From Oligoflexales bacterium (GTDB lineage Bacteria > Bdellovibrionota_B > Oligoflexia > Oligoflexales > CAIYRB01), in contig JBGSUI010000188.1 in assembly GCA_041736175.1 (NCBI GenBank), positions 8,717 through 72,716 of the forward strand: a stretch of 64,000 bases of DNA. The letters run 5' to 3'. Positions within the stretch are counted from its first letter, which is position 1. The number at the start of each line of letters is the position of its first letter. A program made the position numbers and the translations under genes. Below, one piece after another: positions 45,953-64,000 of the stretch. The notes under the pieces are model-generated. The model was not told the DNA's origin. It was given only the letters and a program-made list of their open reading frames with translations, and did no database searches.

Positions 45953-45980
45953 CCTTTCCTTGCGTCTGCCTTGATCTGGC

Positions 45981-46463: not shown

Positions 46464-46467
46464 GTGT

Positions 46468-46650
46468 CTAGCCCCCGACCTTAAAGGACACTAGGTGTCG
46501 AACTTTATTGACCATACCACGGATACAGTTGTTATCTTTCTGTATCACAGTCTGCCCAATCCTCTTGAGCCCAAGTCCCGCCATCACTTTACGGACCTTT
46601 TCCGGTTCGCTGATAAGGCTCTTTGTTTGGGTAATTTCAATTTTTGACAT
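46468..46650 (-). CDS. rpmD: 50S ribosomal protein L30
   Basis: MSKIEITQTKSLISEPEKVRKVMAGLGLKRIGQTV, 60 aa. Confidence 0.94.
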   Translation of the reverse strand: MSKIEITQTKSLISEPEKVRKVMAGLGLKRIGQTVIQKDNNCIRGMVNKVRHLVSFKVGG

Positions 46651-46664
46651 TTCGTGGAACTCCC

Positions 46665-47270: not shown

Positions 47271-47285
47271 GTGTTTTGTCCCTTT

Positions 47286-47642: not shown

Positions 47643-47667
47643 GTTAACCCCCTGATCTTATTTGAAA

Positions 47668-48204
47668 TCACTTTTTACCAGCGGCCTTACCGACCTTCGT
47701 TATAATTTTCTCGTCTTCATACCGAACGCCTTTACCATGATATGGCTCTGGTGGTCGGAATCCCCTAACCTTGGCGGCAACCTGGCCTACTAATTCTTTA
47801 TCAGCTCCGCTCACCACTAAGATCGTCTGTTGGTCGACTTTGATCTCAACCCCTGTAGGCGGTTCATATTCAATGGGATGACTAAAACCGAGAGAGAGAT
47901 TTACTTTTTTCCCGGCTGATGCTGCCCTATACCCTACTCCAACGAGCTTGAGCCGCTTAGAGAAACCCTGACTTACCCCTAGGACCATATTGTTAACAAG
48001 AGTCCTTGTAAGCCCCTGGAAATTCCGGTGCAGGCTATCTTTAACGGAAACATTGACATGGTTCCCTTCCAAGGCAATGTCAACCTGGTTATGAATTTTT
48101 CTATTAAGCTGCCCTTTAGGGCCTTTGACACCAACGTCTTTTCCGTTGATTGTCACAGTGACACCTTTAGGTAGCTCTATTGGTTTTTTTCCAATTCTTG
48201 ACAT
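47668..48204 (-). CDS. rplF: 50S ribosomal protein L6
   Basis: MSRIGKKPIELPKGVTVTINGKDVGVKGPKG.. Confidence 0.96.
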   Translation of the reverse strand: MSRIGKKPIELPKGVTVTINGKDVGVKGPKGQLNRKIHNQVDIALEGNHVNVSVKDSLHRNFQGLTRTLVNNMVLGVSQGFSKRLKLVGVGYRAASAGKKVNLSLGFSHPIEYEPPTGVEIKVDQQTILVVSGADKELVGQVAAKVRGFRPPEPYHGKGVRYEDEKIITKVGKAAGKK

Positions 48205-48213
48205 GAGAGTCCT

Positions 48214-48612
48214 CTAATAAACTGTGCAAATGAGTTCGCCGCCCACATGCTCGCCCCGAGCCATTCGGTCGACCATAAGCCCTTTTGATGTCGATAAAAT
48301 GGCACATCCAAAGCCATTCTTTACGTACGGAATTGCATCAGCATGCACATAAACTCGCTTCCCTGGCTTGCTGACTCGATCGATACCACTGATGACTGGC
48401 TTTCCCTCATCACCATATTTGAGTGCGATCTTAAGGACACCTTGTCGGTCATCCCGGATACATTTATAAGCACGAATGTAACCCTGTTCTTTAAGGAGAT
48501 GAGCAATACCGATCTTGATTTTAGATGCGGGTATACTCACCACTTCTACCCCGGCTTTTTGCGCGTTCCTAACCCTTGTTAAAAGGTCAGCAATTGGATC
48601 TGTTACATTCAT
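48214..48612 (-). CDS. rpsH: 30S ribosomal protein S8
   Basis: MNVTDPIADLLTRVRNAQKAG.. Confidence 0.96.
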   Translation of the reverse strand: MNVTDPIADLLTRVRNAQKAGVEVVSIPASKIKIGIAHLLKEQGYIRAYKCIRDDRQGVLKIALKYGDEGKPVISGIDRVSKPGKRVYVHADAIPYVKNGFGCAILSTSKGLMVDRMARGEHVGGELICTVY

Positions 48613-48691
48613 GACTTAACCATACTCCGTATGTTAACAATTCTCTTTTCTCGACTTTAGGTTCTAAAGACTACACCCTGAGGCTGTTGGA

Positions 48692-48961
48692 CTACCAGGA
48701 CGCTTTGGTCACACCTGGAAGGAGGCCCTTCAGAGCCAACTGCCTGAAACAGATCCTGCAAATCCCGAATTTCCGATAAACAGCTTTTGGCCTACCACAG
48801 TTGTTACAACGAGTATAAGCCCTTGACGAATAGGTCAACTTGGATTTGACTTCACGCCACTTAAGTTTCTTCTCGTTCATTTCGCTGATCAGCGCCGCCT
48901 TCTGGCGAGCCACTCTTTCATTAACTTTTTCGCACTTTTTAATACTAGCGACCCTTGCCAT
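48692..48961 (-). CDS. rpsN: 30S ribosomal protein S14 (89 aa, with CxxC...CxxC)
   Basis: C-terminal ..[39 protein letters not shown], in operon position. Confidence 0.94.
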
Positions 48962-48979
48962 TGCTTTTACTCCTTTGAA

Positions 48980-49531
48980 TCATGATTTACGAAATGGAAA
49001 ATTAAAGCGATCCAAAAGAGCTTTGGCTTCAACGTCGTTCTCTGCACTGGTCACTATCGTTATACCAAGGCCCCGCACTCTATCAACTTTATCGTAATCA
49101 ATCTCAGGGAAGATGATTTGTTCCTTCAACCCAACATTGTAGTTTCCACGTCCATCGAATGCTTTTGCCGAAAAACCCCTAAAATCCCGAATTCGTGGAA
49201 CCGTAATATTGATAAAACGGTCCAGAAACTCATACATCCGGTCGCCGCGAAGCGTTACCGCACAACCAATGGGCATACCCTCTCGCAACTTAAAGGTCGC
49301 GATAGACTTTTTTGCTTTTGTCATCACAGGTTTTTGACCTGTGATCGCCGTCAAATCCGCGACTGCACCCTCAAGACTCTTAATGTTCTGGGTCGCATCA
49401 CCTTGTCCGATATTCACCACGATCTTTTTGAGCCCTGGAACACGCATTTTATTTTTGATGCCAAGGTCTGTCATCAAGCTACTGAATTCGGACTTGTATT
49501 TTGTTTTCAATGTTGGTTGATAGGATGACAT
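48980..49531 (-). CDS. rplE: 50S ribosomal protein L5
   Basis: ..[16 protein letters not shown].. and ..[28 protein letters not shown].. Confidence 0.96.
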
Positions 49532-49543
49532 TTTTTTAACCTT

Positions 49544-49915
49544 TCAAAGTACTTCTGGTGCTAGGGATGCAATTCTCACATACCCCTTCGCCCTAACTTC
49601 ACGGGCCACGGGTCCGAATATCCGCGTTCCAACTGGCTCGCTTTCCTTGCCCTTAATCAGAACACATGCATTTTCGTCAAATCGTATAGTGGTTCCATCG
49701 TCTCGCTGGATCTCTTTTTTGGTCCTAACAACGACTGCCTTGTGAACCGTCCCTTTTTTAACTTTACTATTGGCAAGTGTTTCTTTGATTGAAACGACAA
49801 TGACATCCCCTACCGCTGCGTAGCGCTTCTTGCTGCCGCCAATGACCTTGAAACATTTAAGGGTGCGGGCTCCGGAGTTGTCTGCACTTTGTAGAACTGT
49901 TTCCATCTGAATCAT
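49544..49915 (-). CDS. rplN: 50S ribosomal protein L14
   Basis: [27 protein letters not shown]...[11 protein letters not shown]...IASLAPEVL, colinear with E. coli L14. Confidence 0.96.
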
Positions 49916-49920
49916 TGGTG

Positions 49921-50187
49921 CTACTCCTTAGCCTTTTTCACAATTTCAATAAGGGTAAACTTCTTACGTGAACTATGGGGGCGCGAAGCAGCGATTAGAA
50001 CTAAATCGCCTGACTTGCTCGCATTAGACTCGTCGTGAAACATCAACTTTGTCGTTTTGCGAATAAACCGACCATATTTCTCATGCTTTACGAGTCTCTC
50101 GACCGTCGCTACGCGGGACTTTTGCATCTTATCGCTTGTCACGCGCACAGTTAATGGTCGTGCTTTTTTATCTTTATGCTCACTCAC
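49921..50187 (-). CDS. rpsQ: 30S ribosomal protein S17
   Basis: ..[38 protein letters not shown].. Confidence 0.95.
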
Positions 50188-50219
50188 CGCGCACTCTCCC
50201 TCGTTCTTACTGGTCTACC

Positions 50220-50435
50220 CTATGATTTCTTAGACTTAGACTTGTTTTGGTTCTTAGCGGTTAGCACTCTTGCCAATGATTTCCTAAGGCCCTTTGCCGA
50301 CTTCCTCTTACCTTTGATCCCATAAATATCGAGCTTGCCGACATTCATTTGAAGACGCAAACCCTTCTCAGCCTGAGTCAATTCAGTGGCATTGAGTTTT
50401 AACATTTCGCTATAGGTTAGCTTTTCGTGTTCCAT
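50220..50435 (-). CDS. rpmC: 50S ribosomal protein L29
   Basis: 71 aa, helical, ..LRKSLARVLTAKNQ.. Lies between rplP and rpsQ. Confidence 0.9.
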   Translation of the reverse strand: MEHEKLTYSEMLKLNATELTQAEKGLRLQMNVGKLDIYGIKGKRKSAKGLRKSLARVLTAKNQNKSKSKKS

Positions 50436-50458
50436 AACTTTATTTCTCCGGTCTTATC

Positions 50459-50881
50459 TCAGACCCAGGGGTCTAGGCCTTTTATGATTAATTTGGTCCG
50501 AATGGGAAGTTTCGAAGCGGCTAAACTGAGGGCCTGGGTAGCCGTCTCTTTATCTACACCATTCATCTCATAGATAATGCGCCCAGCCCTGATTCTTGCT
50601 TCGTAATGGTCGATCGCGCCTTTACCGCCACCCATACGTACCTCGGCTGGTTTTTTCGAAATAGGAAAGTGGGGAAAAATCTTAATCCAGACCTGCCCAC
50701 CTCTTTTTATGTGTCGGGTCATGGCAATACGTGCAGCCTCAATTTGCCTGGCTGTGACGCGCCCATTTTCCGCGGCCATAATCCCGAAATCACCGAAAGC
50801 AAGGTCGCTTCCTTTGGAGGCTTTCCCGGTAATCTTTCCCCGGAACGACTTCCGGTGTTTCATTTTCTTTGGAGATAACAT
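50459..50881 (-). CDS. rplP: 50S ribosomal protein L16
   Basis: MLSPKKMKHRKSFRGKITGKASKGSDLAFGDFG.. Confidence 0.96.
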   Translation of the reverse strand: MLSPKKMKHRKSFRGKITGKASKGSDLAFGDFGIMAAENGRVTARQIEAARIAMTRHIKRGGQVWIKIFPHFPISKKPAEVRMGGGKGAIDHYEARIRAGRIIYEMNGVDKETATQALSLAASKLPIRTKLIIKGLDPWV

Positions 50882-50893
50882 GCCCCTAGCTCC

Positions 50894-51541
50894 TTACTGT
50901 ACCGTGTCAAAGACTTCGCCTCGGAAAATCCATACCTTCACACCGATCAGGCCATAGGTCGTCATGGCCTCAGCGGTTGCATAATCGATATCTGCACGCA
51001 GCGTATGCAAGGGGACGCGCCCTTCCATGTAACGCTCGGTTCTGGACATATCTGCCCCACCCAATCTTCCCGCACACTGAACTTTTACACCTTTGGCGCC
51101 AGCTTTAATTCCTGAAGTGATCGCTTTTTTCATCGCGCGACGGAAAGAAACCCTTCTTTCTAACTGCTGCTTCACGCTCTCGGCGAGGAGCTTAGCTTCT
51201 ACATCTGGTTTCTTAACTTCAAAAACCTTTAAGACTGGCTCACCTGATTTTATTTTGCAGTGCTTTATGAGCTCATCTTTAAGGGTTTCTGCTCCTGAGC
51301 CCTTCTTGCCAATGATCACACCAGGACGTGCGCTATAAATATTCACCGTAAGATTCTTGGCAGCTCTTTCGATCTCAATTCGGGCTATGCCAGCAGCATC
51401 GAACTTCTTAGCCACATACTGCCTTATCCGAATATCTTCCATCAAATTGATAGGATAATCTCTTTTGTTTGCATACCATCGGGAGGACCAAGTTCTTGTA
51501 GTCCCCAGACGAAACCCTACTGGATTAACTTTTTGTCCCAA
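50894..51541 (-). CDS. rpsC: 30S ribosomal protein S3
   Basis: [24 protein letters not shown].. Confidence 0.96.
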
Positions 51542-51560
51542 AGCACATCTCCCTAATGGA

Positions 51561-51899
51561 TTAAATCTCTTTTAACTTGATTGTTATATGTGAGGTGCGT
51601 TTCTGAATAGGGGTCGCCCTTCCCTGTGCACGTGGTAACCATCTCTTTAAGGACGTCCCCCCATCCACGAAGCCTTCGGAGACAATAAGTCTATCAACAT
51701 CGACAGTCGCTTTATTGGTCGCATTGGCTATCGCCGACACTATCATTTTCGCTACGATCGGAGCAGAACGCTTATTGGTATTTTTTAATAATTCTAGCGC
51801 ATACTGCACTGGTTTACCTTTGACAAGATTAACCACCAATCGGACTTTTCGAGGTGCTATTCTCAAATTCTTTAACACTGCCTTTGATGCCTCTGCCAT
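51561..51899 (-). CDS. rplV: 50S ribosomal protein L22
   Basis: ..[25 protein letters not shown].. Confidence 0.95.
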
Positions 51900-51939
51900 A
51901 CCAACACTCCCTTTGACTCGCTAAACTTCACTCAATCTC

Positions 51940-52227
51940 TCATTTCGCTGCTGGAGATGCACTCTTGACTTTTCGGTCTCCAGAGTGGCCGATAAAGGTT
52001 CTGGTTGGTGAAAATTCACCTAACTTATGTCCAACCATATTCTCGGTCACATAGACTGGGATAAACTTCTTGCCATTATGAACCGCAAAGGTCAAGCCAA
52101 CAAAATCCGGTATGATTGTTGAACGTCGAGACCAGGTTTTGATTGGCTTTTTGTCTTGCCGAGCCTGCTCTGCTTTTTTTATAAGGTACTCGTCAAGAAA
52201 CGGACCTTTCTTTACTGAACGAGACAA
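51940..52227 (-). CDS. rpsS: 30S ribosomal protein S19
   Basis: [15 protein letters not shown]...[30 protein letters not shown]. Confidence 0.96.
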
Positions 52228-52250
52228 TGGTAATACCTCCGAATATTCGT

Positions 52251-53096
52251 TTACTTGACCCGAGATTCACGACGCTTTGCGGCGCGACGAATGATATCTT
52301 TGTCGGTTCGCTTGTTTTTACGAGTTTTATAACCTTTTGTAGGCTGTGCCCATGGAGAAACAGGATGGCGACCACCGGACGTTTTTCCCTCACCACCACC
52401 ATGGGGGTGATCGATTGGGTTCATTGCCACCCCACGCACGGTCGGTCTGATTCCCAACCATCGGGAGCGACCAGCTTTACCTATAGAGACGTTGATCTGT
52501 TCCTGGTTGCTTACCGAACCAATCGTGGCCATACACTCTTCTTGAACCCGCCTCATCTCGCCGGATGGCATCTTAAGCTGGGCCCAACCATCGACACGTC
52601 CCACTAACTGGCAGCGGGCACCGGCTGATCGAACCATTTTTGATCCGCCACCTGGCCTAAGCTCAATATTGTGAATATCAACACCATAAGGAATCGACTT
52701 TAACGGCATTGCATTGCCGACTTTCACATCTGCTTTTTCTGAAGCAACGACTTTCATACCCTTTTGAAGCTGATCGGGGGCTATGATGTACCGCCGCTCA
52801 CCATCGCTATACAAGACTTTCGCAATAAATGCCGTGCGATTAGGATCGTATTCAATGGTCTCAACGATTCCTACAATATCTCTTTTATCGCGCTTCCAAT
52901 CGATAATTCGATACTTTTGCCGACTACCGCCGCCTTTATGCCTTACGGTGATGCGGCCTTGATTGTTCCGTCCGGCGTTCTTTTTAAGACTGACCGTTAA
53001 AGAAGCAAGTGGTTCAACTTTATCAAGGTGAGAGTAGTCCACCGTTGACATTCCGCGTCGACCAGGAGATGTAGACTTATATTGTTTCGTGGCCAT
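52251..53096 (-). CDS. rplB: 50S ribosomal protein L2
   Basis: ..[29 protein letters not shown].. Confidence 0.97.
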
Positions 53097-53119
53097 AGGC
53101 TGGTACCTTTTACTCCGGC

Positions 53120-53407
53120 TTATTTTACTTGAAAGATGTCGATATTTGAGTCTTTGCTAAGAGACACTACAGCTTTTTTCCAATTAGATCTCTTGGATTG
53201 ACGAGCCCCTCGCTGGACTATTTTCCCGCGAATGATCGAAGTGTTCACAGCAAGTGCCTTCACTCCAAAGACCACTTCGATAGCCTTTTTAACGTCTTCC
53301 TTGGTCGCTTTAGGCTGTACAGCAAATGAAAATTGATTGAATTTTTTTCTGCTGCGTTCACCTTTTTCAGAGGTGATGGGCTTTATAAGTACATTATATG
53401 GATTCAT
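53120..53407 (-). CDS. rplW: 50S ribosomal protein L23
   Basis: 95 aa, ..[10 protein letters not shown]...[17 protein letters not shown].. Confidence 0.94.
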
Positions 53408-54033
53408 TCTTTTGTCTCCTGAAATCTTTGGGCAAGCGAACTTAGTGCTGTCTCGCTAATGATAAGGTGCTCATAGCGAAGAACATTCTCTGCATTGATC
53501 TCACCTGGAGGTAAGACTTTGGCGCCGTATAGGTTTCTCGCAGATTTATAAAGAACATCATCTTTGCGTTCGTCTGCCAGCAGCGTTTTCGTTGCTTTAA
53601 AGTTTTCGATAAGCTTACGAATCTGCTTGGTTGAGTACTTTTCGATCGCAAAGTCGTTTACCACTATCAATCGATCGTGTCTTACCTTGTCGCTGAGGGC
53701 TACCTTAAGGGCCAACCGTCGAGCTTTTTTTGTTGTGTACTGGCGGTACGACCTAGGTTGTGGGCCGTGGGCCTCGCCACCACCGGGCATATGGGGGTTA
53801 CGAAGACTCCCTTGACGGGCCCCACCGGTGCCTTTTTGTTTGAAGGGCTTTTTCCCTCCACCAGATACGAAAGCCTTCGTCTTAGTGGCATGGGTACCCT
53901 GGCGCCGATTGGCCTGATAAGCTTTGACCACCGAGTGGAGAATGGCTTCATTCATCTCGACATTGTAAATGTCATCAGGCACCTGGATGGTTTTGATTTT
54001 CGAGGCTTCGATGTTATAGACATTCAATTCCAT
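53404..54033 (-). CDS. rplD: 50S ribosomal protein L4
   Basis: ..QGTHATKTKAFVSGGGKKPFKQKGTGGARQGS.. Overlaps rplW by 4 nt. Confidence 0.96.
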   Translation of the reverse strand: MELNVYNIEASKIKTIQVPDDIYNVEMNEAILHSVVKAYQANRRQGTHATKTKAFVSGGGKKPFKQKGTGGARQGSLRNPHMPGGGEAHGPQPRSYRQYTTKKARRLALKVALSDKVRHDRLIVVNDFAIEKYSTKQIRKLIENFKATKTLLADERKDDVLYKSARNLYGAKVLPPGEINAENVLRYEHLIISETALSSLAQRFQETKE

Positions 54034-54047
54034 GGTTTACGCCTCAC

Positions 54048-54716
54048 TTAAGATTTCTTAACCGCTTTGGGTTTTTTAGCTTTGATCGATGGTCTTATCA
54101 CTAAAAATCCATCCTTGTGACCTGGTACAGATCCCCTGACCGCAATCACCCGACTCTCTTGATCGAGATCTAAAACATCGAGGTTTAAGATCGTAACCTG
54201 CTCTGAACCGTACTGACCTGGCTGGTGCCGATTCTTCATCACTCGACCCGGGGTCGATCTCATACCCAATGAACCAGGGGAACGATGGAATCTAGAACCG
54301 TGGGACATGCGACCCACTGCTGAATTCCAACGAACGTGGGCACCGGAGAATCCACGACCTTTGGTAATCCCTGTGATATCGATCGCTTTGACGTCCTGGA
54401 GCAGATTTGAAAAATCAATTGCTTGGCCAAGCTCAGGAGCGGCAGTTCCAGGGACTAAGCGAAACTCCTGGTAGCGGATGAATTTCTCCTCGACTCCTGC
54501 CTGACTTAGTCTTCCCAGGTCGGCTTTATTAAGGTGTTTTTCACCCTTAGCATAGAATCCCACCTGAACAGCTTCGTAGCCGTCTTTTTCTAAGGTTAGT
54601 TTTTTTGTGACCTTTTGCTGCTCGACTTGCAAGAGTGTCACTGGTGTCACTCGTCCTTGTGCGTCGACCATTCTGGTCATTCCGATTTTCTTAGCGATGA
54701 GTCCGGCTGTTGTCAT
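54048..54716 (-). CDS. rplC: 50S ribosomal protein L3
   Basis: ..GLIAKKIGMTRMVD...ITKGRGFSGAHVRWN.. Confidence 0.96.
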   Translation of the reverse strand: MTTAGLIAKKIGMTRMVDAQGRVTPVTLLQVEQQKVTKKLTLEKDGYEAVQVGFYAKGEKHLNKADLGRLSQAGVEEKFIRYQEFRLVPGTAAPELGQAIDFSNLLQDVKAIDITGITKGRGFSGAHVRWNSAVGRMSHGSRFHRSPGSLGMRSTPGRVMKNRHQPGQYGSEQVTILNLDVLDLDQESRVIAVRGSVPGHKDGFLVIRPSIKAKKPKAVKKS

Positions 54717-54807
54717 TCCTGCAACCTGCCATTATTACTATGTGTTAAAGTCAAAGACGTTCCATTCAGGTTCGTCACATTTTCGATTCTTTTTTTAGGA
54801 TGATGTC

Positions 54808-55119
54808 TCAATAGAGTTTAATCTCGACGTCTACCCCAGAAGCAAGGTCAAGCTTCATCAAAGCATCGATGGTTTGCTGCTTTGGCTCCAAAATGTCGAT
54901 CAACCTCTTATGGGTGCGCACTTCGAACTGCTCACGAGACTTTTTATCCACGTGAGGACTTCTTAACACCGTAAAGCGATTGATGCCAGTGGGGAGGGGG
55001 ATAGGACCTGCGACTTTAGCTCCCGTTCGTTTTGCCCGTTCCACAATGTCGGCTGCGGACTGGTCAAGGAGTCTGTAGTCATAACCTCGCAGGCGGATTC
55101 TGATTTTTTGATTTTCCAT
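54808..55119 (-). CDS. rpsJ: 30S ribosomal protein S10
   Basis: [44 protein letters not shown].. Confidence 0.96.
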
Positions 55120-55356: not shown

Positions 55357-56181
55357 ATGGGTCAGCAGATTTTAGTGCGAATGGAGCAGAAATGGTTAGC
55401 CACACTGTTTTTTATAGTCTTCAGTCATGCAAGATGTGTCACCGATCCAAATCACCAATTACCCCCAAAACCGTTGGGCCCTTCTACAGCACCAGCATTA
55501 GTTAAACAGAGCTTTGGAACAGCTGGGACATCTTTTGATGCGTTATTCATAGGTCCAAAAATGATCTTGAGGCCATCTAGTCGCCCCAAAGATCTTAACC
55601 CTGATAGGCCATGCCTGCTCTTTATCGGCACCCCCCTTAAGGATGGTATGGTATTTTTAGACCATCTGGCACGGGACATGGAGCGAACTGGGGAAGAAAC
55701 CTACCGATTCGTCACAACCACCGATCCAACTATAGATGGGGGAAACACGGCACCAATCACTCTAGGAGGAACCCTTACAGGTGAGTTATGGCGAGGCGAT
55801 CCTGCAAAGGGCGGCACCTTAATCATTAAAGCACTTGGGGTATCTGAGGTAAAGCTCCACGAGACAGCCACTAAGCGCCCGATTCCCGAACATCTCCGAG
55901 AAAAAGTTTACAGCCTCGTAAGTACCGACCGGGACATGGTGGCTATCCCCCTATTCGGAGACGAAAAAAGCGAAGTACGTTCCATTCGGGTAAGATTAAG
56001 GGAGCTTAGGGCAGATCCTACAGTCCGAGGATGGTTGTTAAAAGAGCCTCATCTCGTCGTATTTGAAAACTCTGCAGCGATCGCCGCGGACGAGGCCGAT
56101 GAGGGGTCGTTCCTCAAAGGTAAGATCAGAATTCGCGGCAAATTTTATGCATCAACGTTCGAGCGGGTCCCGCCCCCTTGA
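55357..56181 (+). CDS. hypothetical exported protein (274 aa)
   Basis: Hydrophobic N-terminus WLATLFFIVFSHARC (possible lipobox). No recognised motifs. Confidence 0.5.
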   Translation: MGQQILVRMEQKWLATLFFIVFSHARCVTDPNHQLPPKPLGPSTAPALVKQSFGTAGTSFDALFIGPKMILRPSSRPKDLNPDRPCLLFIGTPLKDGMVFLDHLARDMERTGEETYRFVTTTDPTIDGGNTAPITLGGTLTGELWRGDPAKGGTLIIKALGVSEVKLHETATKRPIPEHLREKVYSLVSTDRDMVAIPLFGDEKSEVRSIRVRLRELRADPTVRGWLLKEPHLVVFENSAAIAADEADEGSFLKGKIRIRGKFYASTFERVPPP

Positions 56182-56188: not shown

Positions 56189-57190
56189 CTACTGATTAAG
56201 GAGAACAACCTTAGATTTACGCCTCTGTTCAACAACCCACCTTTTAGTCTGTTCTTGGAGTTCCAAGAACAGCAATTCGTCTTGTAACTTAACTTTATTA
56301 GCAAGAAATCCACGACTGGCCGTAAACTGCTTATTCTCTAGCAAAAACAGGTACCAACCCATGGGAGTCTTGATAGGAGAGGTGAACTGGCCGGGTTCCA
56401 GCTTTTGAATTTCTGATTGAAGGATTTGGTTTAAGTCGCCTAATTTAAGGGGAGGTAGCTGCCCCCCGTTCTCTCTGGCCTTTGGATCATCGCTATAGAC
56501 TTTTGCAATCACAGGAAAAGGACTGCCATCGACAAGTTTTTGATAGACCTGTTTTGCCAAAACGCTCTTGGCTGCCATGACCTCACTAGGAGCATCTTTG
56601 GGTACCGAGATTAGGATCTGCCTTAATTGCAGTTCTATGGATTCCTTACTATCCCCAGTCTTTTTAAGGTAGTAGGTCTCAAGGTCTCTATCGGTTATCT
56701 TGATAAGCGGCCGGATGATCCTTCCTTGAAATCGCTGTAATCTTAAATAGTCTTTGGCATCCTGAAAGTAATCCTCATAAGCAACGCCCTCCTGGGCTAG
56801 CCTTTGCTTGAGCTGGTCCCGGCTAAGCTGGAGCCTTTTCAAGTTTTGATCGATTTCCTTGTCAACATCACTGTCTTCGACCTCAATGCCTAATTCATCC
56901 GCCTTGAGAGTCGCTAGCTTCCAGTTGATGGCATCATTAAGCGCCCTTTCAAAGGGCGGAGATTTATCGGTCGAAGGATGATCCGAAATGACGACAAGTG
57001 GTCCAGCCTCGATTTTTTCCGTAACCTCAGAGAGTAACACCGGACTTCCGTCAACAATTGCTACAATGCGATCGACTAATTCCTCGCTTTGCACAGCTTT
57101 TGGCCACAAAAACAGGGAGAGCAACATCACGCCTGTGAAAACCTTAAGTTTCTGCCTTCGCTCAATCCCAACCAAAAAGTGCTCAGTCAC
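56189..57190 (-). CDS. SurA-like periplasmic chaperone / parvulin PPIase
   Basis: Signal sequence, then a SurA_N-like LVDRIVAIVDGSPVLLSEV, and a parvulin-like region ..LRQILISVPKDA...PIKTPMGWYLFLLE.. Confidence 0.7.
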   Translation of the reverse strand: MTEHFLVGIERRQKLKVFTGVMLLSLFLWPKAVQSEELVDRIVAIVDGSPVLLSEVTEKIEAGPLVVISDHPSTDKSPPFERALNDAINWKLATLKADELGIEVEDSDVDKEIDQNLKRLQLSRDQLKQRLAQEGVAYEDYFQDAKDYLRLQRFQGRIIRPLIKITDRDLETYYLKKTGDSKESIELQLRQILISVPKDAPSEVMAAKSVLAKQVYQKLVDGSPFPVIAKVYSDDPKARENGGQLPPLKLGDLNQILQSEIQKLEPGQFTSPIKTPMGWYLFLLENKQFTASRGFLANKVKLQDELLFLELQEQTKRWVVEQRRKSKVVLLNQ

Positions 57191-57234: not shown

Positions 57235-58317
57235 TTACCATATATATTTTAGAGACCTGACGCCCGCAACCGGTAGCTTTGCAAGTGCTCTTTCCATCCA
57301 TTTTTGGTATTCCGCCGCCCTTTTCTGTCGGAATAAAATATCCCTTATTTCCTCCGTAACTTCATCTTTATTTTTGCTTCCGTGACTAACTCTTCTTTCT
57401 AACATCATAATATGATAGCCATAGTCTGATCGAATCACATCACTGATCTGTTGAGGTTGCATAGAAAACGCCCGATCGAACACAGGAATAAGCCCCCCCT
57501 TTGAATACGGCGGCAGGGCGCCTCCCTCGGAGCCTTCTGGCGCTATGGAGTATTTTTTAGCAAGGTTGACAAAATTTTTGGGATTGATCATAGCTCGTAC
57601 TTTTTGTGCCACTGCTTCGTCCCCAATCAAAATATGCCGTATTTCTACGATGTCTCGTTTGGTGAAGTATTTTAAGTTATCTTGGTAATGGGCATTGATT
57701 TCATTCTCTGTAATCACAATCCTAGGATCAATGACTTCCTTAAGGTATTGTTGGAGCAAACTTTTTTCACAGAGTGCTTCTTTGACAAATTTTGAGTCAC
57801 GAAATCTGCTCGGAGAGTTCACCGAAAGCGCTTCGACCTTTTGCCAATCCGATATGCATGAAAGGTATCGTTCCGGTTTGTCGATCGCAAACGTCTCGTC
57901 TTGCAAGAGATAGCCGTAGAGGACTTTTCTTTCGACAATCATGGGAAGAAGCGATTTTTCGAGCGCTTCTTCTAAGGTTGGGGACAATTCGTTTCCATTG
58001 GTCATTCCAAACTGTTCTACTTTGATTTGGTTTTTTATGAGTTGGATTTCCCACTCCAAATCTTGATTGCTAACTTGGGTATCGCCGACTTCAATAATAT
58101 ACTCATTGGCATTGCCCCTAAACCGACTTAGTTGAGACACCTCGTCTCCATAATTGTCGGGTAGTAAGAGCGCCCTAAAAAAGCCTTGATTTTGGACCTT
58201 CCATATCGATGATCCAATATAAAAAAGGACCGCCATTGCTGCCAAGATAGAGACGGTCCTGATAATAAAACGATTTTTTAGAAACGTTTGATCATCGATT
58301 TTTTTGTCGTCGCCCAT
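57235..58317 (-). CDS. membrane-anchored parvulin-type peptidyl-prolyl isomerase (PpiD/PrsA-like)
   Basis: N-terminal TM segment. Rotamase domain EIRHILIGDE...FVNLAKKYSIAPEGSEGGAL...SDYGYHIMMLERR. Confidence 0.75.
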   Translation of the reverse strand: MGDDKKIDDQTFLKNRFIIRTVSILAAMAVLFYIGSSIWKVQNQGFFRALLLPDNYGDEVSQLSRFRGNANEYIIEVGDTQVSNQDLEWEIQLIKNQIKVEQFGMTNGNELSPTLEEALEKSLLPMIVERKVLYGYLLQDETFAIDKPERYLSCISDWQKVEALSVNSPSRFRDSKFVKEALCEKSLLQQYLKEVIDPRIVITENEINAHYQDNLKYFTKRDIVEIRHILIGDEAVAQKVRAMINPKNFVNLAKKYSIAPEGSEGGALPPYSKGGLIPVFDRAFSMQPQQISDVIRSDYGYHIMMLERRVSHGSKNKDEVTEEIRDILFRQKRAAEYQKWMERALAKLPVAGVRSLKYIW

Positions 58318-58394: not shown

Positions 58395-61300
58395 CTATGA
58401 CCAGAACACGCTCAGTTTAGCGACAAGGAGGATGATTTTGTCGATTATTTCTAAGGAATTGGTAATCGAACCAAAACCCCCATCCTTGACCAACACTCCC
58501 TTTTTAGGGAGCGGCCGGTACACAAGGGGCTGAGAGTCTATAGCTTTTAAAATACCGGCTGCAATCGCCTTATCTGGATCCTTAAAATACAGTTCGATAC
58601 CGATTTTCGTGAATATGAGAGATTCGACACTCATTTTACGTAGATCAATTTTGAGACTTGCTATCCGGTAGATCACAATCATCTCTGGGGGAGGAATTCC
58701 ATAGCAGTCTTTAAGACCTTCATAGACAGACTCTAACTCCTCATGATTTTCACAAGCAAATAAATTTTTATAAATCCGCAAGCGCTCCTTTTCATTTTGA
58801 ATGTATTCTGTTGGGATAAAGACATCGACTGGAATTTTAATTTCCACATCAAATCGCTGTTGATTTGGTTCTCCCTTTAAGAGGCTAATGGATTCAAGCA
58901 GGAGATCCCGATATATTTCCAGCCCCAGATCCTGCACGTGCCCGGATTGGGAGTCACCAAGTAGTTCACCTGCTCCACGAAGCTCAAGATCACGATTAGC
59001 GATTAAAAAGCCAGCTCCCAGCTCTTGATGACTGGCGATAATATCGAGTTTTTTAAGAGACTCTTCGCTTAGCCTCCCTTTGGATTCGACCAACAAATAA
59101 GCATAAGCCTGAACGTTAGACCGTCCGACGCGGCCCCTGATCTGGTAGAGCTGCGCCAAGCCAAACCGATCTGCCTTATCGACAATCAGGGTATTGACGT
59201 TGGGCATATCGATGCCAGCTTCAATGATCGTCGTACAAAGCAAGAGATCGTATTTGTGGTTTAGAAAGTCCCGAATCACTTGTTCGAGATGGTGTTCCCC
59301 CATTTTCCCGTGGGCGACTGCTATACGAGCATCTGGACAATATCGCGCGATTTTAAGGGCGAATTGGTCTATATCTTGCACCCTATTATGAACAAAGAAG
59401 ATCTGTCCTCCCCGAGCAATTTCTTGGGTTATTGCTTTAGAAATAATCTCTTCATCGAATGGGGCAATCACGGTCTTAATGGGCAAGCGTTGTCTGGGGG
59501 GCGTCGCTATCACTGAGATATCCCGTAAGCCAAGCAGTGCCATATGGAGGGTCCTTGGAATCGGTGTGGCACTTAACGTCAACACATGGGCTTTCTCCCG
59601 GAGCTTTTTGAGTTTCTCTTTATGCAGAACTCCAAACCGCTGCTCCTCATCAACCACCAATAACCCTAGTTTAGCTGGCTTGACGTCTTTAGATAATAAT
59701 CGGTGGGTTCCGATAAGGATATCAACCGCCCCCCTGGATAAATCCTCGAGTGATTTGACAACCTGTTTTTGGGGGACAAATCTATTTGCATGGTCCACTC
59801 GAACCCCATATTTTTCCATTCTCTTACTAAATGTCGAGAAATGTTGATAACAGAGAACTGTCGTGGGGACCAATATGAGGACCTGATAACCCTCTAGCAC
59901 CGTGCGCATAGCCGCCCTTAAGGCGATCTCTGTTTTACCAAACCCAACGTCTCCACAGACTAACCGGTCCATAGGTCGGCCAGACCTAAAATCCTGTTCG
60001 ACCTCCTCTAAGACTTTGACCTGATCGTCCGTCTCCTCATAAGGAAAGTCACCTTCAAAGCTAAAAAAAGTCTCATCAGGCTCTACATAGTGATAGCCTT
60101 TCGCCACAAGACGTTTAGCCTGTTCTGTGAGGAGCTGCCTTGCTATTTCAAGGGTTTCTAACTTGACTTTTTGTTTCTTGGCTTCAAAAGATCCACCTAA
60201 GCGGTCCAAGGCCCGTTGATGGGAATGGTCCGTAGAGATTTCATATCGGCTGAGTGCATTGAGACGATCAACTGGAAGATATATTTTATCATTACCAGCA
60301 TACTCAAGAATCAAGAATTCAGTTTGTTGGCCACCAATCGCAAGCTTGGAAAGACCCAAGTAGCGACCCACACCATGCTGGTGATGAACAACTAAATCCT
60401 TTACATTGAGATCCCCAAAATTTTGAAAGGTGCTGCTAAGCTTTCTTTTTGAACTCAGATTAGCCTTGGGACTGATACCTAGGAGCCTATAATCAGGAAT
60501 AAGGATTTTGTTTTCGATTTCAAGGTAAACAGCCTGACTTAGAAAACCCAACTGTAGGAGAATACTTTCTTGTGCAGGATTAGGAGGCAGATTTTCACGA
60601 GCGGTGACGATTGGCAAATTTCTTGCACCAAGAAGACTTTTAATTCTTTCTTGGCGTTCCGTATTTTGTGTCAAAATGGTAATAGAGGTTTGATTCGATA
60701 AATACTCTTTTAACGATTCCATCCAGTGTTCAAAGGGATCGTCTTTTTGGCCTTTAAGGTTGACAATCTCCCAAAGCCCGCCTTGATGGCCTCCCCCAAT
60801 CTGGGAGTCGGCCACTGGTTTGATACCTGTAAAATCAACGGATCTTCCTTTTACGAGATCCGAAAAAGATTCCATAGATTGGCCGGCAAAATGCTCCTCT
60901 AAATCCGATGAAGGCACTTTTTTTTCTTTATCTTTCGCTAGGGCGATCCGGATATCCTCCATAACCCCCTCGTGGGCCATCATGGTTTGATGGATCCCGT
61001 CGGCAAATATCCAAAGGGACTCTCTCGGGAGATAATTCAAACCAGGCTCAGTCTTACCGTTCAAAAACGGCAAATAATGGGCCACAGTATTAGAAAGCTC
61101 GCCCCGCTTAAAGCTTTCGACAAGCTCTAATCGCTCCGCATTCCCAACGCCTCTATCTAAGGCCTGCGAATACAAGGACTGAACAAGTTGTTGCCGTTGG
61201 CTTTCGGAAAAATAAAATTCTGAGGCTGGAGCAAGGATTGCCTCATTTAAACTTTCTATGGAACGCTGGTCAGCCCGGTCAAAAAAGCGTATGGACTTAA

Positions 61301-61910
61301 TCTCATCGAGGAAGATTTCTACCCGTATGGGGTGTGGATAGAGAGGTGAAAAAAAGTCTACAATACCACCTCTCATGCTAAAATTACCTTCAACCTCTAC
61401 GGAATAACTTTCTCGGTAACCTAATGCCAATAAATTGGCTTTTACCTGGTCAGGATCCAACTCCGATCCAATCTTTAGGGGCATTAGGCCACGAAGCAAC
61501 TCGTCCTTTGGCTTGGTCACCTGAAGGAGCCCAGTAAGCGTTGTGAGAATCAGTTGGTTTTGACCAGAATTGATTAGCTTTAGTAAACTATGCTGTCTTT
61601 GAATCCTTTGGTTTCGGTGGTCCACATACCGATCTGTGCCATAATTAGAAATATAGGGAAGAACGGTGACCGTATCTTGGGTCCAAGGCTTTTCGCGAAA
61701 GATCCATTGAAAATGGGTAAACCATTTGGAAAGATCTTTTTGGTGTTCAACCAAAAAAACGACCTTTGAATACTTATTTTTCGAGATCAACTGTGCTGAT
61801 AAAAGCTCTTTAATGGCATCATCACAAGTAGGAATCTGATAACTGAGCCCTTTTTCAAAGGACTTAAAGATACTATCTAAAAGCCCCTGTAAACAGTTTC
61901 CATAAATCAT
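58395..61910 (-). CDS. mfd: transcription-repair coupling factor Mfd
   Basis: About 1170 aa. UvrB-homology N-terminus, RNAP-interaction domain, helicase motifs GDVGFGKTEIA, VVDEEQRFG, LSATPIPRTL and QIRGRVGRS, and a TRCF C-terminal domain. ATG 61910-61908 overlaps the top6A stop (TGATG); the track start 61913 is a TTG. Confidence 0.93.
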   Translation of the reverse strand: MIYGNCLQGLLDSIFKSFEKGLSYQIPTCDDAIKELLSAQLISKNKYSKVVFLVEHQKDLSKWFTHFQWIFREKPWTQDTVTVLPYISNYGTDRYVDHRNQRIQRQHSLLKLINSGQNQLILTTLTGLLQVTKPKDELLRGLMPLKIGSELDPDQVKANLLALGYRESYSVEVEGNFSMRGGIVDFFSPLYPHPIRVEIFLDEIKSIRFFDRADQRSIESLNEAILAPASEFYFSESQRQQLVQSLYSQALDRGVGNAERLELVESFKRGELSNTVAHYLPFLNGKTEPGLNYLPRESLWIFADGIHQTMMAHEGVMEDIRIALAKDKEKKVPSSDLEEHFAGQSMESFSDLVKGRSVDFTGIKPVADSQIGGGHQGGLWEIVNLKGQKDDPFEHWMESLKEYLSNQTSITILTQNTERQERIKSLLGARNLPIVTARENLPPNPAQESILLQLGFLSQAVYLEIENKILIPDYRLLGISPKANLSSKRKLSSTFQNFGDLNVKDLVVHHQHGVGRYLGLSKLAIGGQQTEFLILEYAGNDKIYLPVDRLNALSRYEISTDHSHQRALDRLGGSFEAKKQKVKLETLEIARQLLTEQAKRLVAKGYHYVEPDETFFSFEGDFPYEETDDQVKVLEEVEQDFRSGRPMDRLVCGDVGFGKTEIALRAAMRTVLEGYQVLILVPTTVLCYQHFSTFSKRMEKYGVRVDHANRFVPQKQVVKSLEDLSRGAVDILIGTHRLLSKDVKPAKLGLLVVDEEQRFGVLHKEKLKKLREKAHVLTLSATPIPRTLHMALLGLRDISVIATPPRQRLPIKTVIAPFDEEIISKAITQEIARGGQIFFVHNRVQDIDQFALKIARYCPDARIAVAHGKMGEHHLEQVIRDFLNHKYDLLLCTTIIEAGIDMPNVNTLIVDKADRFGLAQLYQIRGRVGRSNVQAYAYLLVESKGRLSEESLKKLDIIASHQELGAGFLIANRDLELRGAGELLGDSQSGHVQDLGLEIYRDLLLESISLLKGEPNQQRFDVEIKIPVDVFIPTEYIQNEKERLRIYKNLFACENHEELESVYEGLKDCYGIPPPEMIVIYRIASLKIDLRKMSVESLIFTKIGIELYFKDPDKAIAAGILKAIDSQPLVYRPLPKKGVLVKDGGFGSITNSLEIIDKIILLVAKLSVFWS

Positions 61911-63091
61911 CAAATAAAATCTCGTTTTTTGATTTTATCAATAATGATCTTTTCCATTCCCTGAGGATCCCTTGGGTTTACAGATATAAACGATTGCTGC
62001 TCGCAACGTCGTTTATTTTTAACAAGCCACTCTAATATACCCTTTAAGTCCGCATTTTTTTTGTCTTTGAAAAATGGATCGTTTGCCAGTGCATCTTTAG
62101 CTTTCTTTAGCGACCGTGCCTCCTGTGGATCATTCTCTCTCACAGGGTAGTCTACAAGATCATACTGCTGGATATCTTTTGGAAGCACTCCTAAAAACCT
62201 CACTTCGGGTGCACAGAAATCCGAGTTTCTGATCAAAGATGATGCCGACCCTGCCTTAAGGGTTCTGTAGATATTTTGCATTGTATAGGCATCAAGGTCT
62301 CCAAAGAAATAGAGTGGGACTTTAAGTTGATCTTGGATCCTACGCACCCAAGCTCTCACGGCATTTGAAGGGACCCCTTGTGCACCAACGACAATACAGT
62401 TATGACGTTTCGTAAATCCATTGGCTACCAAGGTATTAGCCGTTCCCTGTGATTCAATGACAATACAAAACTCAATGGGAGTCTTAGCCGTTAGCCTAAG
62501 ATTTTGGGGCCGATTGCGAGGCTGGTAGGGAGCCGTGCCCAGAGTCGAAAGGTCAACAGTCGCCACACTGCCATCCAGTTCTGTCTCATTAACTATTAAC
62601 TGTTTAGAATAGGTTTGGCCACCCCGATCATCTGCCACACAGTTAAGCTCTTCTCGATAAGCCTCCATCATTTCGCACAAAAAATCGATCACAGAATCTG
62701 ATTCGTCCTGGTCCTGAAAATCTAGTGGCCTCAATTTGCTTTCATGTTTGATAAGACCCTTGGCAACATAATAAAGCTCTCTTTTTGTGTTGATATTTGA
62801 AATTTCTACATTGCGGAGCAAAATTTCTAACATAAAAATTGCCCGGGTAATTTTTTTAACCGAAGTCGCATTGAGTTCAGAAGTCACCTTTTTACTACCT
62901 GGTGACAAGTATCCGATTTTACTATTATAATGAGCATTGTCAAGAGCGCATTTAGTCGCCTTCAGCACAGGTCTTCGAGCTTTCTCCAAATCTGCTAACA
63001 TTCTTTCACATAGATCCTGCCCTAAGTGAATAACGTCACTCTCCGTTTTTTTGACGCGTCTAAACTGGCTATTGATTTCCAATGGATGCAC
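61910..63091 (-). CDS. top6A: DNA topoisomerase VI subunit A (Spo11/Top6A family)
   Basis: 393 aa. Catalytic-Tyr motif TKRELYYV in the winged-helix/5Y-CAP region. Toprim Glu (IVIESQGT) and a DxD motif (FFGDLDAYTMQNIY). Sits directly downstream of a Top6B-like gene. Confidence 0.75.
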   Translation of the reverse strand: MHPLEINSQFRRVKKTESDVIHLGQDLCERMLADLEKARRPVLKATKCALDNAHYNSKIGYLSPGSKKVTSELNATSVKKITRAIFMLEILLRNVEISNINTKRELYYVAKGLIKHESKLRPLDFQDQDESDSVIDFLCEMMEAYREELNCVADDRGGQTYSKQLIVNETELDGSVATVDLSTLGTAPYQPRNRPQNLRLTAKTPIEFCIVIESQGTANTLVANGFTKRHNCIVVGAQGVPSNAVRAWVRRIQDQLKVPLYFFGDLDAYTMQNIYRTLKAGSASSLIRNSDFCAPEVRFLGVLPKDIQQYDLVDYPVRENDPQEARSLKKAKDALANDPFFKDKKNADLKGILEWLVKNKRRCEQQSFISVNPRDPQGMEKIIIDKIKKRDFI

Positions 63092-63129
63092 TCCTCAGTG
63101 TACAGGTGAAAATTCGCAGCCTTCTTAAA

Positions 63130-64000
63130 TCATACTTGGCGGCGATTTACCTTTGGTAGGGCTGTCTTTTCAACCTCTATTTGCGTCTTAGTCTCTTGCT
63201 CCGCCTCTTTGGAAATTGTATCGAAAAGGGTCGACATCTTCTGCCGCTTTTCTTCTAGATAATCAGCAAGTCGGTCCTCTGCAGCCGCTAAATCTTTGGC
63301 GATCCCTTTGGCATCCGACTCCAATATTTTTGCAAGTCCTTTAGTCGCAACTTGCTTGCGACCTTCGGAAGCCCCTAAGATGCGCGCTAAGGCTTCGATT
63401 AAGATCGGCCCAAATTGTTCGATATGCTGAACTCTTTGCTCCAGTTCGTCTGCCTTATGCTCCCGAGCCAAATACCGGGACAACCTTTGACCGGTCTGCA
63501 TTAGAGCTTTTCTCAGCTCTTCCACAAGCTCATCAGAGGCATCGATCGTTTCTTTGGAGGCGTTTTTAAAGCGAATAAACGGCGAAACAACGCTGATGGC
63601 AAAGATATAGGGTCCTTGGGGTAAACCACCACGGGGGTGTTTGAGTCCATAGGACCTCCAGTTAACGGAGGTGATCGCTCGCACGATCGCGCAGGACGCT
63701 TTGTCAAATTGGAGGGGGACTCTATTAGCAAAGCGAAGCACCTGGACTGATTCTTCTAAATCGACCCCACTGCGCTCCTTAAGCCTAGCAATGGCCACTT
63801 CGACTTGAACTGGCTTAAAGTCACAGATCGCAGGCTTCCGTGTCAGCACCGCAAAGTAATCGATCTCACCCAGCCGTCGGACGCTTAATGCTAGACTTTC
63901 TTCGCCGACGGCAATGACCGTCTGGGTGGAAGGTGCCATCAACTTGGCCTTTTGGATGCTGCCAAAAAGTAGTTTAAATTGCTCGTCCGTTAAAACATCA
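63130..64000 (-). CDS. top6B: DNA topoisomerase VI subunit B, C-terminal transducer part (gene continues past window end)
   Basis: RFANRVPLQFDKASCAIVRAITSVNWRSYGL...GPYIFAISVVSPFIRFKNASKETI matches the remembered Top6B transducer block (RFAN..PL.Y....C.I......W..YGL). The frame is open from 63942 to base 64000, by my own check. Confidence 0.75.
   Translation of the reverse strand, partial: DVLTDEQFKLLFGSIQKAKLMAPSTQTVIAVGEESLALSVRRLGEIDYFAVLTRKPAICDFKPVQVEVAIARLKERSGVDLEESVQVLRFANRVPLQFDKASCAIVRAITSVNWRSYGLKHPRGGLPQGPYIFAISVVSPFIRFKNASKETIDASDELVEELRKALMQTGQRLSRYLAREHKADELEQRVQHIEQFGPILIEALARILGASEGRKQVATKGLAKILESDAKGIAKDLAAAEDRLADYLEEKRQKMSTLFDTISKEAEQETKTQIEVEKTALPKVNRRQV

Follow-up and report, generated by a model that had tools for sequence, protein, structure and literature searches.

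A topoisomerase VI gene pair adjoining mfd in an Oligoflexales bacterium and its conservation in Bdellovibrionota

Introduction

Topoisomerase VI (topo VI) has already been published for bacteria including Bdellovibrio bacteriovorus, in which gyrase (GyrA) is present and ParC is not (PMC11302465). Allen & Maxwell (2024) reported topo VI in 17 bacterial families, with B. bacteriovorus Bd2864/Bd2865 among the examples, and detected ParC in no more than seven further bacteria with topo VI (PMC11302465). A review likewise lists the B. bacteriovorus topo VI, together with a "Top IV (Bd0005)" (PMC11318664); the latter entry conflicts with the GyrA-box classification by Allen & Maxwell. Bdellovibrio is not mentioned by Takahashi et al. 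(2020).

Here we analyzed a top6B-top6A gene pair located at the end of a 64,000-nucleotide stretch of DNA from an Oligoflexales bacterium (the window). A first-pass annotation had proposed that the pair encodes a two-subunit type IIB topo VI, acquired by integration and lying next to the transcription-repair coupling factor gene mfd. To our knowledge, no bacterial topo VI enzyme has been characterised to date.

Results

Top6A carries the domains and catalytic residues of a topo VI A subunit

The positions of all features are compiled in Table 1. Translation of top6A more likely starts at the TTG codon than at the upstream GTG, since a putative Shine-Dalgarno sequence (GAGGAG) precedes the TTG by 8 nt and an identical database protein (P0001) has a length of 390 amino acids. 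The protein consists of a winged-helix/CAP domain with the catalytic tyrosine and a Toprim domain (Pfam TP6A_N, 3.7e-11; TOP6A-Spo11_Toprim, 5.5e-39). Its best NCBIfam model was topo VI subunit A (NF003335, 1.6e-110), which was matched over model positions 16-370 of 373, and its relatives carry the NCBI name "DNA topoisomerase VI". The score of 369.5 bits fell short of the 424 bits required by the curated equivalog cutoff. The shortfall concerns the annotation threshold and mirrors the isolation of the clade, because the full-length proteins that come next share only 34-35% identity.

Table 1. Features of the top6-mfd region (positions in the window).
Feature	Position	Strand	Remarks
top6B, 3' part	63130..64000	minus	residues 336-624 of 624, runs off the window end; transducer and C-terminal tail
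top6B-top6A spacer	63083..63129	minus	Shine-Dalgarno-like GAGGAG at 63091..63096, 5' of TTG 63082
top6A	61910..63091	minus	ORF of 393 aa from GTG 63091; probably 390 aa from TTG 63082
Top6A Arg/Tyr motif R104-E-L-Y107-Y108	62768..62782	minus	aligned to REAYY of M. jannaschii Top6A (1D3Y); Tyr108 codon 62768..62770
Top6A Toprim Glu213 codon	62453..62455	minus	aligned to IETSG motif of 1D3Y
Top6A Toprim DxD metal site G264-D-L-D-A-Y-T270	62282..62302	minus	aligned to DGDPYG of 1D3Y; Asp265 and Asp267 codons within 62291..62299
mfd (transcription-repair coupling factor)	58395..61910/61913	minus	TIGR00580, 928 bits (cutoff 800); ATG 61910..61908, alternative in-frame TTG at 61913
PPIC-type peptidyl-prolyl isomerase (PPIase) gene	57235..58317	minus	Pfam Rotamase families; 77 nt 3' of mfd
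SurA-like PPIase gene	56189..57190	minus	Pfam SurA_N and Rotamase

The best solved match at the sequence level was Methanocaldococcus jannaschii Top6A (PDB 1D3Y; 3.4e-37, 131 bits). Alignment with this structure and comparison with related sequences confirmed the three active-site elements that had been read from the sequence before, namely the catalytic tyrosine motif TKRELYYV (residues 102-109), the Toprim glutamate and the diverged DxD motif GDLDAYT. R104, Y107, Y108, E213, D265 and D267 were invariant in 81 sequences. The entire GDLDAYT motif was also invariant in 81 Bdellovibrionota sequences, whereas the nearest outgroups display DCDPYG or DGDFYG. The DxD residues are followed by A-Y-T in the Bdellovibrionota clade and by P-[YHW]-G in archaea and Planctomycetota.

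An AlphaFold2 model of Top6A (pLDDT 86.9, pTM 0.83) was compared with solved structures using Foldseek. All ten significant PDB matches were Top6A or Spo11 proteins. Top6A chains ranked first (9O0G, 1D3Y, 2ZBK and 2Q2E; E 4e-23 to 7e-13, TM 0.5-0.66), followed by Spo11.

The complete Top6B contains a GHKL ATPase domain

Only the 3' part of top6B lies in the window. It codes for the transducer (Pfam Topo-VIb_trans, 1.7e-43; NCBIfam topo VI B, 1.9e-55) and a helical, charged C-terminal tail, while the GHKL and H2TH parts are located beyond the window end. The whole gene was recovered from a near-identical contig (L001:8088-9962) that differs from the window by 2 mismatches in 9637 bp. It encodes a protein of 624 amino acids with a complete GHKL ATPase of the Bergerat fold (Pfam HATPase_c, 5.7e-10), the element that the first-pass annotation had asked for as a decisive check. 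An extra lysine-rich tail of approx. 40 residues is present at the N-terminus.

Top6B aligned continuously with M. mazei Top6B (2Q2E_B; 5.8e-74) over residues 45-542 including the H2TH region. The motifs EAVDNSLDA, DNGPGI and RGQQGIGIS matched those of 2Q2E_B and 2ZBK_B and are conserved in 69 sequences. The switch lysine of the transducer corresponds to K484 in NASKETI, which aligned to the lysine of the SK(D/E) motif. In the same 69 sequences, E82, N86, DNGPG (124-128), GQQGIG (155-160) and K484 were invariant or nearly so.

The presence of this B subunit also bears on the question whether Top6A might act without strand passage, either as a JetD/MksG-like Toprim nuclease belonging to a defence or condensin system or as a Spo11-like break-maker. 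Such a function could be suspected from a marginal PADLOC match to JetD, which covered only the Toprim core (E 1e-3, 16 bits), and from the Spo11 structures among the fold matches. The latter, however, ranked below all Top6A structures, and the Top6A profile scored 369 bits compared to the 16 bits for JetD, so that the JetD/DUF2220 placement considered in the first-pass annotation was not obtained. Moreover, JetABC/Mks genes were not found nearby, and the gene immediately upstream encodes a canonical Top6B of full length in which the ATP-binding motifs and the switch lysine are intact. We therefore regard a nuclease or break-maker as a very remote prospect. Profiles, matches to solved structures, catalytic residues, the recovered GHKL domain and the predicted fold bear out the earlier reading as type IIB enzyme and indicate a genuine, intact topo VI of the archaeal type.

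The top6 genes reside in a core chromosomal context

The GC content of positions 62001..64000 is 0.457 and lies within the range of the neighbouring 20 kb (0.43-0.48), in agreement with the host-like composition noted before. The top6 genes adjoin the ribosomal-protein cluster rpsJ..secY..rpoA and are bordered by core genes on both sides. The upstream neighbours, seen in L001, are nuo and gpsA, and downstream follow mfd, surA and the ribosomal operon. No Rfam family or tRNA was detected when the whole window was scanned, and the top6 borders were free of integrase genes, tRNAs and repeats.

Relatives of Top6A were present in at least 263 GTDB species genomes, which are named Oligoflexia, Bdellovibrionia or Bacteriovoracia, and 2568 homologous clusters were obtained at E<=1e-10. 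The closest proteins (79-82% identity) derive from freshwater and sediment MAGs and from one MAG labelled Pseudobacteriovorax (class Oligoflexia). Relatives with at least 67% Top6A identity span three classes of Bdellovibrionota. Conservation was assessed in 80 related loci for Top6A and 68 for Top6B. top6B was located directly 5' of top6A in 80/80 related species loci. Clustering of the flanking ORFs of these 80 loci revealed no third conserved partner gene common to more than 18 of them.

An ancient archaeal transfer is considered the origin of bacterial topo VI in general (PMC11302465), which might be taken in favour of a recent horizontal acquisition or a mobile element at this locus, for instance a type IIB enzyme of plasmid type like topo VIII or Mini-A. 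The host-like GC content, the core genes on both sides, the inconspicuous borders and the distribution over three classes all speak against this possibility, and we consider it extremely improbable. Topo VIII was rejected as candidate because the A and B modules are unfused and encoded by two separate neighbouring genes, which are 38 nt apart in a core chromosomal context. Taken together, the GC content, the ribosomal cluster next to the genes and the relatives in at least 263 species genomes show that the top6 genes are not a recent insertion. The first-pass annotation had viewed the genes as a sporadic, integrated acquisition. This view did not hold, as topo VI is old and highly conserved in this lineage and had already been described for B. 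bacteriovorus (PMC11302465, PMC11318664). Sequence conservation rather points to a vertically inherited trait of Bdellovibrionota under strong purifying selection.

Linkage of top6A to mfd is restricted to one subclade

At the top6A/mfd junction the minus strand reads ATT TGA TG. One base is common to the TGA stop codon of top6A (61912..61910) and the ATG of mfd, so that the previously noted overlap (TGATG) could be read directly. The two genes following mfd on the same strand were verified as PPIase/SurA genes by their Pfam domains. A terminator scan returned 8 terminator-like sites compared to 11.6 expected, and none inside the gene string was convincing. In this species and in its close relatives, top6B and top6A lead a tightly packed series that continues with mfd and the PPIase gene. 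This operon arrangement, presumably co-transcribed, is specific for the lineage and not a feature of the enzyme.

Among the 68 loci whose downstream sequence was long enough, mfd followed top6A in only 10, all of them members of two related groups, and the linkage is confined to one subclade. The PPIC-type PPIase gene is syntenic in the mfd-linked loci. A TTGA overlap is kept in the second group of loci (L012, L014, L016, L017 and L019), while in L007 approx. 1.1 kb separate top6A from mfd. Within the same loci, identities amounted to 80-82% for Top6A, 65-72% for Top6B, 42-44% for Mfd and 32-47% for the PPIases.

The overlapping codons, their retention in the second group and the lack of a convincing terminator between top6B and the first PPIase gene would be compatible with a functional coupling, in which topo VI is co-translated with Mfd and resolves supercoils or entanglements arising from transcription-coupled repair. 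Several observations make this very improbable. The linkage to mfd is limited to one subclade and therefore says little about function, it is interrupted by the gap in L007, and no other neighbour is conserved phylum-wide. Furthermore, Mfd evolves far faster than Top6A in the same genomes, and none of the papers in the library searched connects topo VI with Mfd, the only match being an unrelated review. Of the proposed association with mfd, adjacency and overlap thus stand for this locus, while a general functional coupling does not follow.

Discussion

Topo VI had been documented in the phylum before; its wide carriage across Bdellovibrionota was found here. The locus represents one more intact bacterial topo VI, and no new type of system emerges from it. 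Very probably, the two genes encode a functional, chromosomally inherited topo VI of type IIB, presumably an A2B2 complex, that would act as decatenase and relaxase and replace topo IV. By analogy with archaeal topo VI, Top6B would dimerise on ATP binding via its GHKL domain and capture the T-segment, and the transducer would pass the signal to Top6A. The G-segment would then be cut by Tyr108 with the aid of Mg2+ bound by Glu213, Asp265 and Asp267, and movement of the T-segment through the cut would result in net decatenation and relaxation.

The most likely cellular role would be that of a dedicated ATP-dependent decatenase/relaxase beside gyrase and instead of topo IV. A widespread and vertically inherited enzyme that is more conserved than Mfd speaks for an essential housekeeping function, probably as topo IV replacement, rather than for a stray transfer. 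The literature covers one Bdellovibrionota species, for which topo IV was reported to be missing (PMC11302465), and complementation of a parE(ts) mutant of E. coli by M. mazei topo VI is reported as unpublished data (PMC11302465).

A more far-reaching scenario is that topo VI is ancestral, near-universal and essential across Bdellovibrionota. It would have displaced topo IV at the root of the phylum, followed by very strong constraint, a clade-specific remodelling of the Toprim metal-site motif to GDLDAYT and translational coupling to Mfd in one Oligoflexales-related subclade. We offer this scenario tentatively and think it somewhat more doubtful than probable. If true, Bdellovibrionota would be the first phylum among bacteria to rely on a type IIB enzyme of the archaeal type for chromosome segregation, and this may bear on their filamentous, multi-chromosome growth. 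The usual type IIA drugs do not target topo VI, and the enzyme would therefore represent a vulnerability or a tool specific for the lineage in predatory bacteria.

Among described systems, B. bacteriovorus topo VI is closest, being the same two-gene enzyme in the same phylum. Bdellovibrio sp. MAG loci encode a Top6A that is 68-69% identical to the window protein, with top6B directly upstream. By analogy, gyrase would be present in the host genome and ParC missing. The two differ in lineage, as the window is Oligoflexia-like and B. bacteriovorus belongs to the class Bdellovibrionia, and in gene context. While mfd and the PPIase gene are joined to the top6 pair of the window, no mfd was found within the available sequence of L058, L074 (Bdellovibrio sp.) or the Bdellovibrionia loci, the downstream part of L074 comprising only approx. 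2 kb. The lysine-rich N-terminal tail of the window Top6B is a further difference.

The archaeal enzymes (1D3Y; M. mazei holoenzyme 2Q2E; S. shibatae 2ZBK) share domain order, catalytic residues, GHKL motifs, switch lysine and predicted fold with the window enzyme. In contrast, archaeal Top6A is only approx. 20-30% identical to the window protein in the Foldseek alignments, and its DxD residues are followed by P-x-G instead of A-Y-T. The M. mazei Top6B alignment stops near residue 493 of 621; bacterial Top6B was published as being devoid of the Ig-like C-terminal domain of M. mazei (PMC11302465). M. jannaschii Top6A as best solved match agrees with a published tree position of one bacterial topo VI cluster near Methanococcales (PMC11302465).

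Affinities among topo VI clades were judged from scores and shared motifs. A homologue search with P0129 assigned the nearest outgroup and pointed to Planctomycetota (PVC), whose topo VI-A proteins score highest among the full-length relatives outside Bdellovibrionota (34-35% identity). They likewise represent a large, conserved bacterial clade and have the NIYRTLK(V/A)GS block in common with the window Top6A. The Planctomycetota proteins differ by the canonical DCDPYG motif, which they have kept, and by an additional N-terminal domain (Pfam PF20768), and their best NCBIfam sub-model is NF003337 instead of NF003335. The Toprim/winged-helix cleavage module of the window Top6A also occurs in topo VIII, Mini-A and the JetD/MksG nucleases. 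They are fused or stand-alone and occur on plasmids, in viruses and in defence loci, whereas the window encodes separate canonical A and B subunits on the core chromosome.

Both subunits of a topoisomerase VI are encoded upstream of mfd

The first-pass annotation had proposed a two-subunit topoisomerase VI (topo VI), an identity now borne out by profile searches, alignment to solved structures and the fold of Top6A. Top6A matched the Pfam families TP6A_N (3.7e-11) and TOP6A-Spo11_Toprim (5.5e-39) as well as the NCBIfam model for topo VI subunit A (NF003335; 1.6e-110, model positions 16-370 of 373), with a score of 369.5 bits that lies below the curated cutoff of 424. Alignment to Top6A of M. 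jannaschii (1D3Y; 3.4e-37) placed the catalytic residues R104, Y107 and Y108 (RELYY versus REAYY), E213 (IESQG versus IETSG) and D265 and D267 (GDLDAYT versus DGDPYG), confirming the catalytic tyrosine, Toprim glutamate and DxD motif read from the sequence before. The best PDB matches of an AlphaFold2 model (pLDDT 86.9, pTM 0.83) were exclusively Top6A chains from M. mazei, M. jannaschii and S. shibatae (E 4e-23 to 7e-13), followed by Spo11 and no other significant match. The alternative of a non-topoisomerase Toprim protein of the JetD family was rejected, as Top6A profiles and fold match and PADLOC returned JetD with only 16 bits (E 1e-3), restricted to the Toprim core.

The top6B fragment in the window matched the Topo-VIb transducer profile (1.7e-43). 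A look-up of loci encoding the identical Top6A led to L001, a Logan contig that includes top6B in full and differs from the window at 2 positions over an overlap of 9637 bp. The full protein of 624 aa contains the GHKL ATPase domain expected in the upstream part (HATPase_c, 5.7e-10), followed by the transducer, and aligned to Top6B of M. mazei (2Q2E_B; 5.8e-74, residues 45-542) and S. shibatae (9e-57). These alignments located the N-box residues E82 and N86 (EAVDNSLDA), the G1 (DNGPGI) and G2 (RGQQGIGIS) motifs and the switch lysine K484 (NASKETI). With a GHKL domain in the B subunit and an A subunit that is not JetD-like, the earlier observation and its interpretation were correct, and what the two genes encode is a canonical topo VI.

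Top6B of the window lineage has a lysine-rich N-terminal extension of about 40 aa (MKKKASPKNIKKSKPPVKASKGKSGK...; L001:8088-8250, just past the window end at 64000). In most Top6B proteins of Bdellovibrionota the conserved ITTSSTAE(Y/F)F is preceded by only 10-15 residues, and similar basic tails occur in the related-species loci L007, L046, L065 and L070. The extension may be an added DNA-binding tail.

Features of the window and their coordinates
Feature	Position	Strand	Remarks
top6B, 3′ part	63130..64000	-	window entered at codon 335-336 of 624
top6B-top6A spacer	38 nt	-	
top6A	61910..63091	-	ORF opens with GTG at 63091
GDLDAYT motif of top6A	62282..62302	-	
mfd	58395..61910/61913	-	
PPIC-type PPIase	57235..58317	-	
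SurA-like PPIase	56189..57190	-	
274-aa ORF	55357..56181	+	function unassigned; between SurA-like gene and rpsJ; gene call on Logan contig
rpsJ..secY..rpoA ribosomal cluster	41020..55119		
Two sulfatase-family genes	32416..36891		
Three large ORFs (494, 910, 343 aa)	27092..32361	-	
AbiEi/AbiEii pair	23968..25718	-	
SWIM/SNF2 helicase, 1248 aa	14032..17778	+	

Linkage to mfd is restricted to one clade

A TTG at 63082 is the likelier start of top6A than the GTG, since it is preceded at 8 nt by GAGGAG and the identical database protein has 390 aa. The reported overlap of the top6A stop with the mfd start was confirmed as a single shared base (ATT-TGA-TG on the minus strand); an in-frame TTG three bases upstream of the ATG is an alternative mfd start. 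Of the 68 loci with at least 2 kb of downstream sequence, 10 had mfd after top6A, and two further, shorter loci ended inside mfd. All fall either in the same group as the window or in a Pseudobacteriovorax/Oligoflexales group. Five of them again show an overlap (GTT-TGA-CC, TTG start), and the others have gaps of 8-21 nt, or about 1.1 kb in L007. Elsewhere in Bdellovibrionota the downstream genes differ, and of the 80 loci at most 18 shared any one gene family flanking top6AB. A consensus scan revealed no convincing terminator from top6B to the first PPIase gene, which is weak evidence because the scan gave fewer terminator-like sites than expected by chance. With the genes arranged in this way, top6A and mfd may plausibly be co-transcribed and translationally coupled in this subclade. 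Their arrangement has the look of an operon fusion of local extent and not of a functional rule, and our literature search found no paper connecting topo VI and Mfd.

Topo VI is widespread and strongly conserved in Bdellovibrionota

At E<=1e-10 a search with Top6A gave 2568 clusters. Identity was at least 69% throughout the best 120, and those that bear a name are called 'DNA topoisomerase VI', from Oligoflexia, Oligoflexus, Bdellovibrionia, Bacteriovoracia, 'Deltaproteobacteria' or an unclassified bacterium. When GTDB species were scanned with one genome each, 263 had a relative. The closest (79-82% identity) came from freshwater and sediment MAGs and from one MAG labelled Pseudobacteriovorax (Bdellovibrionota; Oligoflexia; Oligoflexales), and Oligoflexus tunisiensis was at 68%. 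In all 80 loci compared, top6B lies directly upstream of top6A. The six aligned Top6A residues were invariant in 81 sequences, and E82, N86, G1, G2 and K484 of Top6B were invariant or nearly so in 69.

In the mfd-carrying loci (L002-L005, L007, L012-L017), identity to the window proteins was 70-82% for Top6A and 61-72% for Top6B, whereas it reached only 42-44% for Mfd and 32-47% for the PPIases. Topo VI is therefore among the slowest-evolving proteins of its neighbourhood, which would be the signature of an essential enzyme. The disparity between Top6A and Mfd is unusual for adjoining housekeeping genes.

A recent insertion of the topo VI genes is contradicted by this conservation and wide distribution, by the flanking core genes and by a GC content of 0.457 against 0.43-0.48 nearby, which bears out the host-like composition noticed at first.

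Other features of the window

The 274-aa ORF had no Pfam match. For three consecutive large ORFs in a stretch of lower GC (about 0.41), followed by the two sulfatase-family genes, neither Pfam nor PADLOC gave a match even at E 0.01. A pair made up of an AbiEi antitoxin and an AbiEii nucleotidyltransferase toxin (type IV toxin-antitoxin/abortive infection) lies in a locally GC-rich patch (0.558 versus about 0.47), possibly a small acquired island. The protein combining a SWIM zinc finger with an SNF2 helicase strongly matched DpdE (1e-139) and ZorD (1e-116) in PADLOC through its helicase core.

Role and comparison with known topo VI enzymes

By 2009 topo VI had been reported from three genomes of bacteria (PMC2647321) and by 2024 from 17 bacterial families, with Bdellovibrio bacteriovorus representing Bdellovibrionota (PMC11302465). 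GyrA was present in 17 of 17 topo VI species surveyed and ParC in only seven, all Pseudomonadota or Terrabacteria, which leaves B. bacteriovorus with gyrase and topo VI but without topo IV (PMC11302465). In bacteria lacking topo IV, topo VI has been rationalised as a specialised decatenase, and complementation of E. coli parE(ts) by M. mazei topo VI is mentioned as unpublished (PMC11302465). A Bdellovibrio review lists topo VI as Bd2864 and Bd2865 as 'Top II' (PMC11318664); from the adjacent locus tags the latter is presumably the B-subunit gene. Its 'Top IV (Bd0005)' conflicts with the GyrA-box analysis (PMC11302465) and is probably an annotation label. Homology, conservation and the published type II complement of B. 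bacteriovorus suggest that the window enzyme, whose identity and integrity are established, most likely stands in for topo IV. It would carry out ATP-dependent strand passage beside gyrase, decatenating replicated chromosomes and relaxing supercoils.

The motif GDLDAYT was the same in each of 81 Top6A sequences from Bdellovibrionota; at this position the proteins of archaea and Planctomycetota have D-x-D-P-[YHW]-G. In a library of 50%-identity representatives, the Bdellovibrionota clade was reduced to a single full-length protein, the divergent P0121 (53% identical, DLDAYS). At only 34-35% identity, P0129 and its kin come next among full-length relatives; they are part of a very large clade of Planctomycetota and keep DCDPYG. 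This comparison across Bdellovibrionota and outgroups indicates that A-Y-T in place of P-x-G is a clade signature and not decay. Of the six PRK04342 sub-models that NCBIfam has for topo VI subunit A, five are described as 'DNA topoisomerase IV subunit A', and Planctomycetota Top6A proteins are accordingly called 'topoisomerase IV subunit A' in NCBI records, a misnaming which could distort surveys of both enzymes' distribution.

A NIYRTLK(V/A)GS block is common to the Planctomycetota, M. jannaschii and Bdellovibrionota proteins. As a sequence likeness, it agrees with the bacterial topo VI-A cluster that Allen & Maxwell placed beside Methanococcales (PMC11302465). At species level, the window enzyme is a new member of a kind of enzyme that is already known, annotated and described in the literature. 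To the 'sporadic' bacterial topo VI of the literature, our analysis adds the breadth and strength of its conservation within Bdellovibrionota, the invariant DLDAYT motif, the variable lysine-rich tail at the Top6B N-terminus and an mfd fusion limited to one clade.
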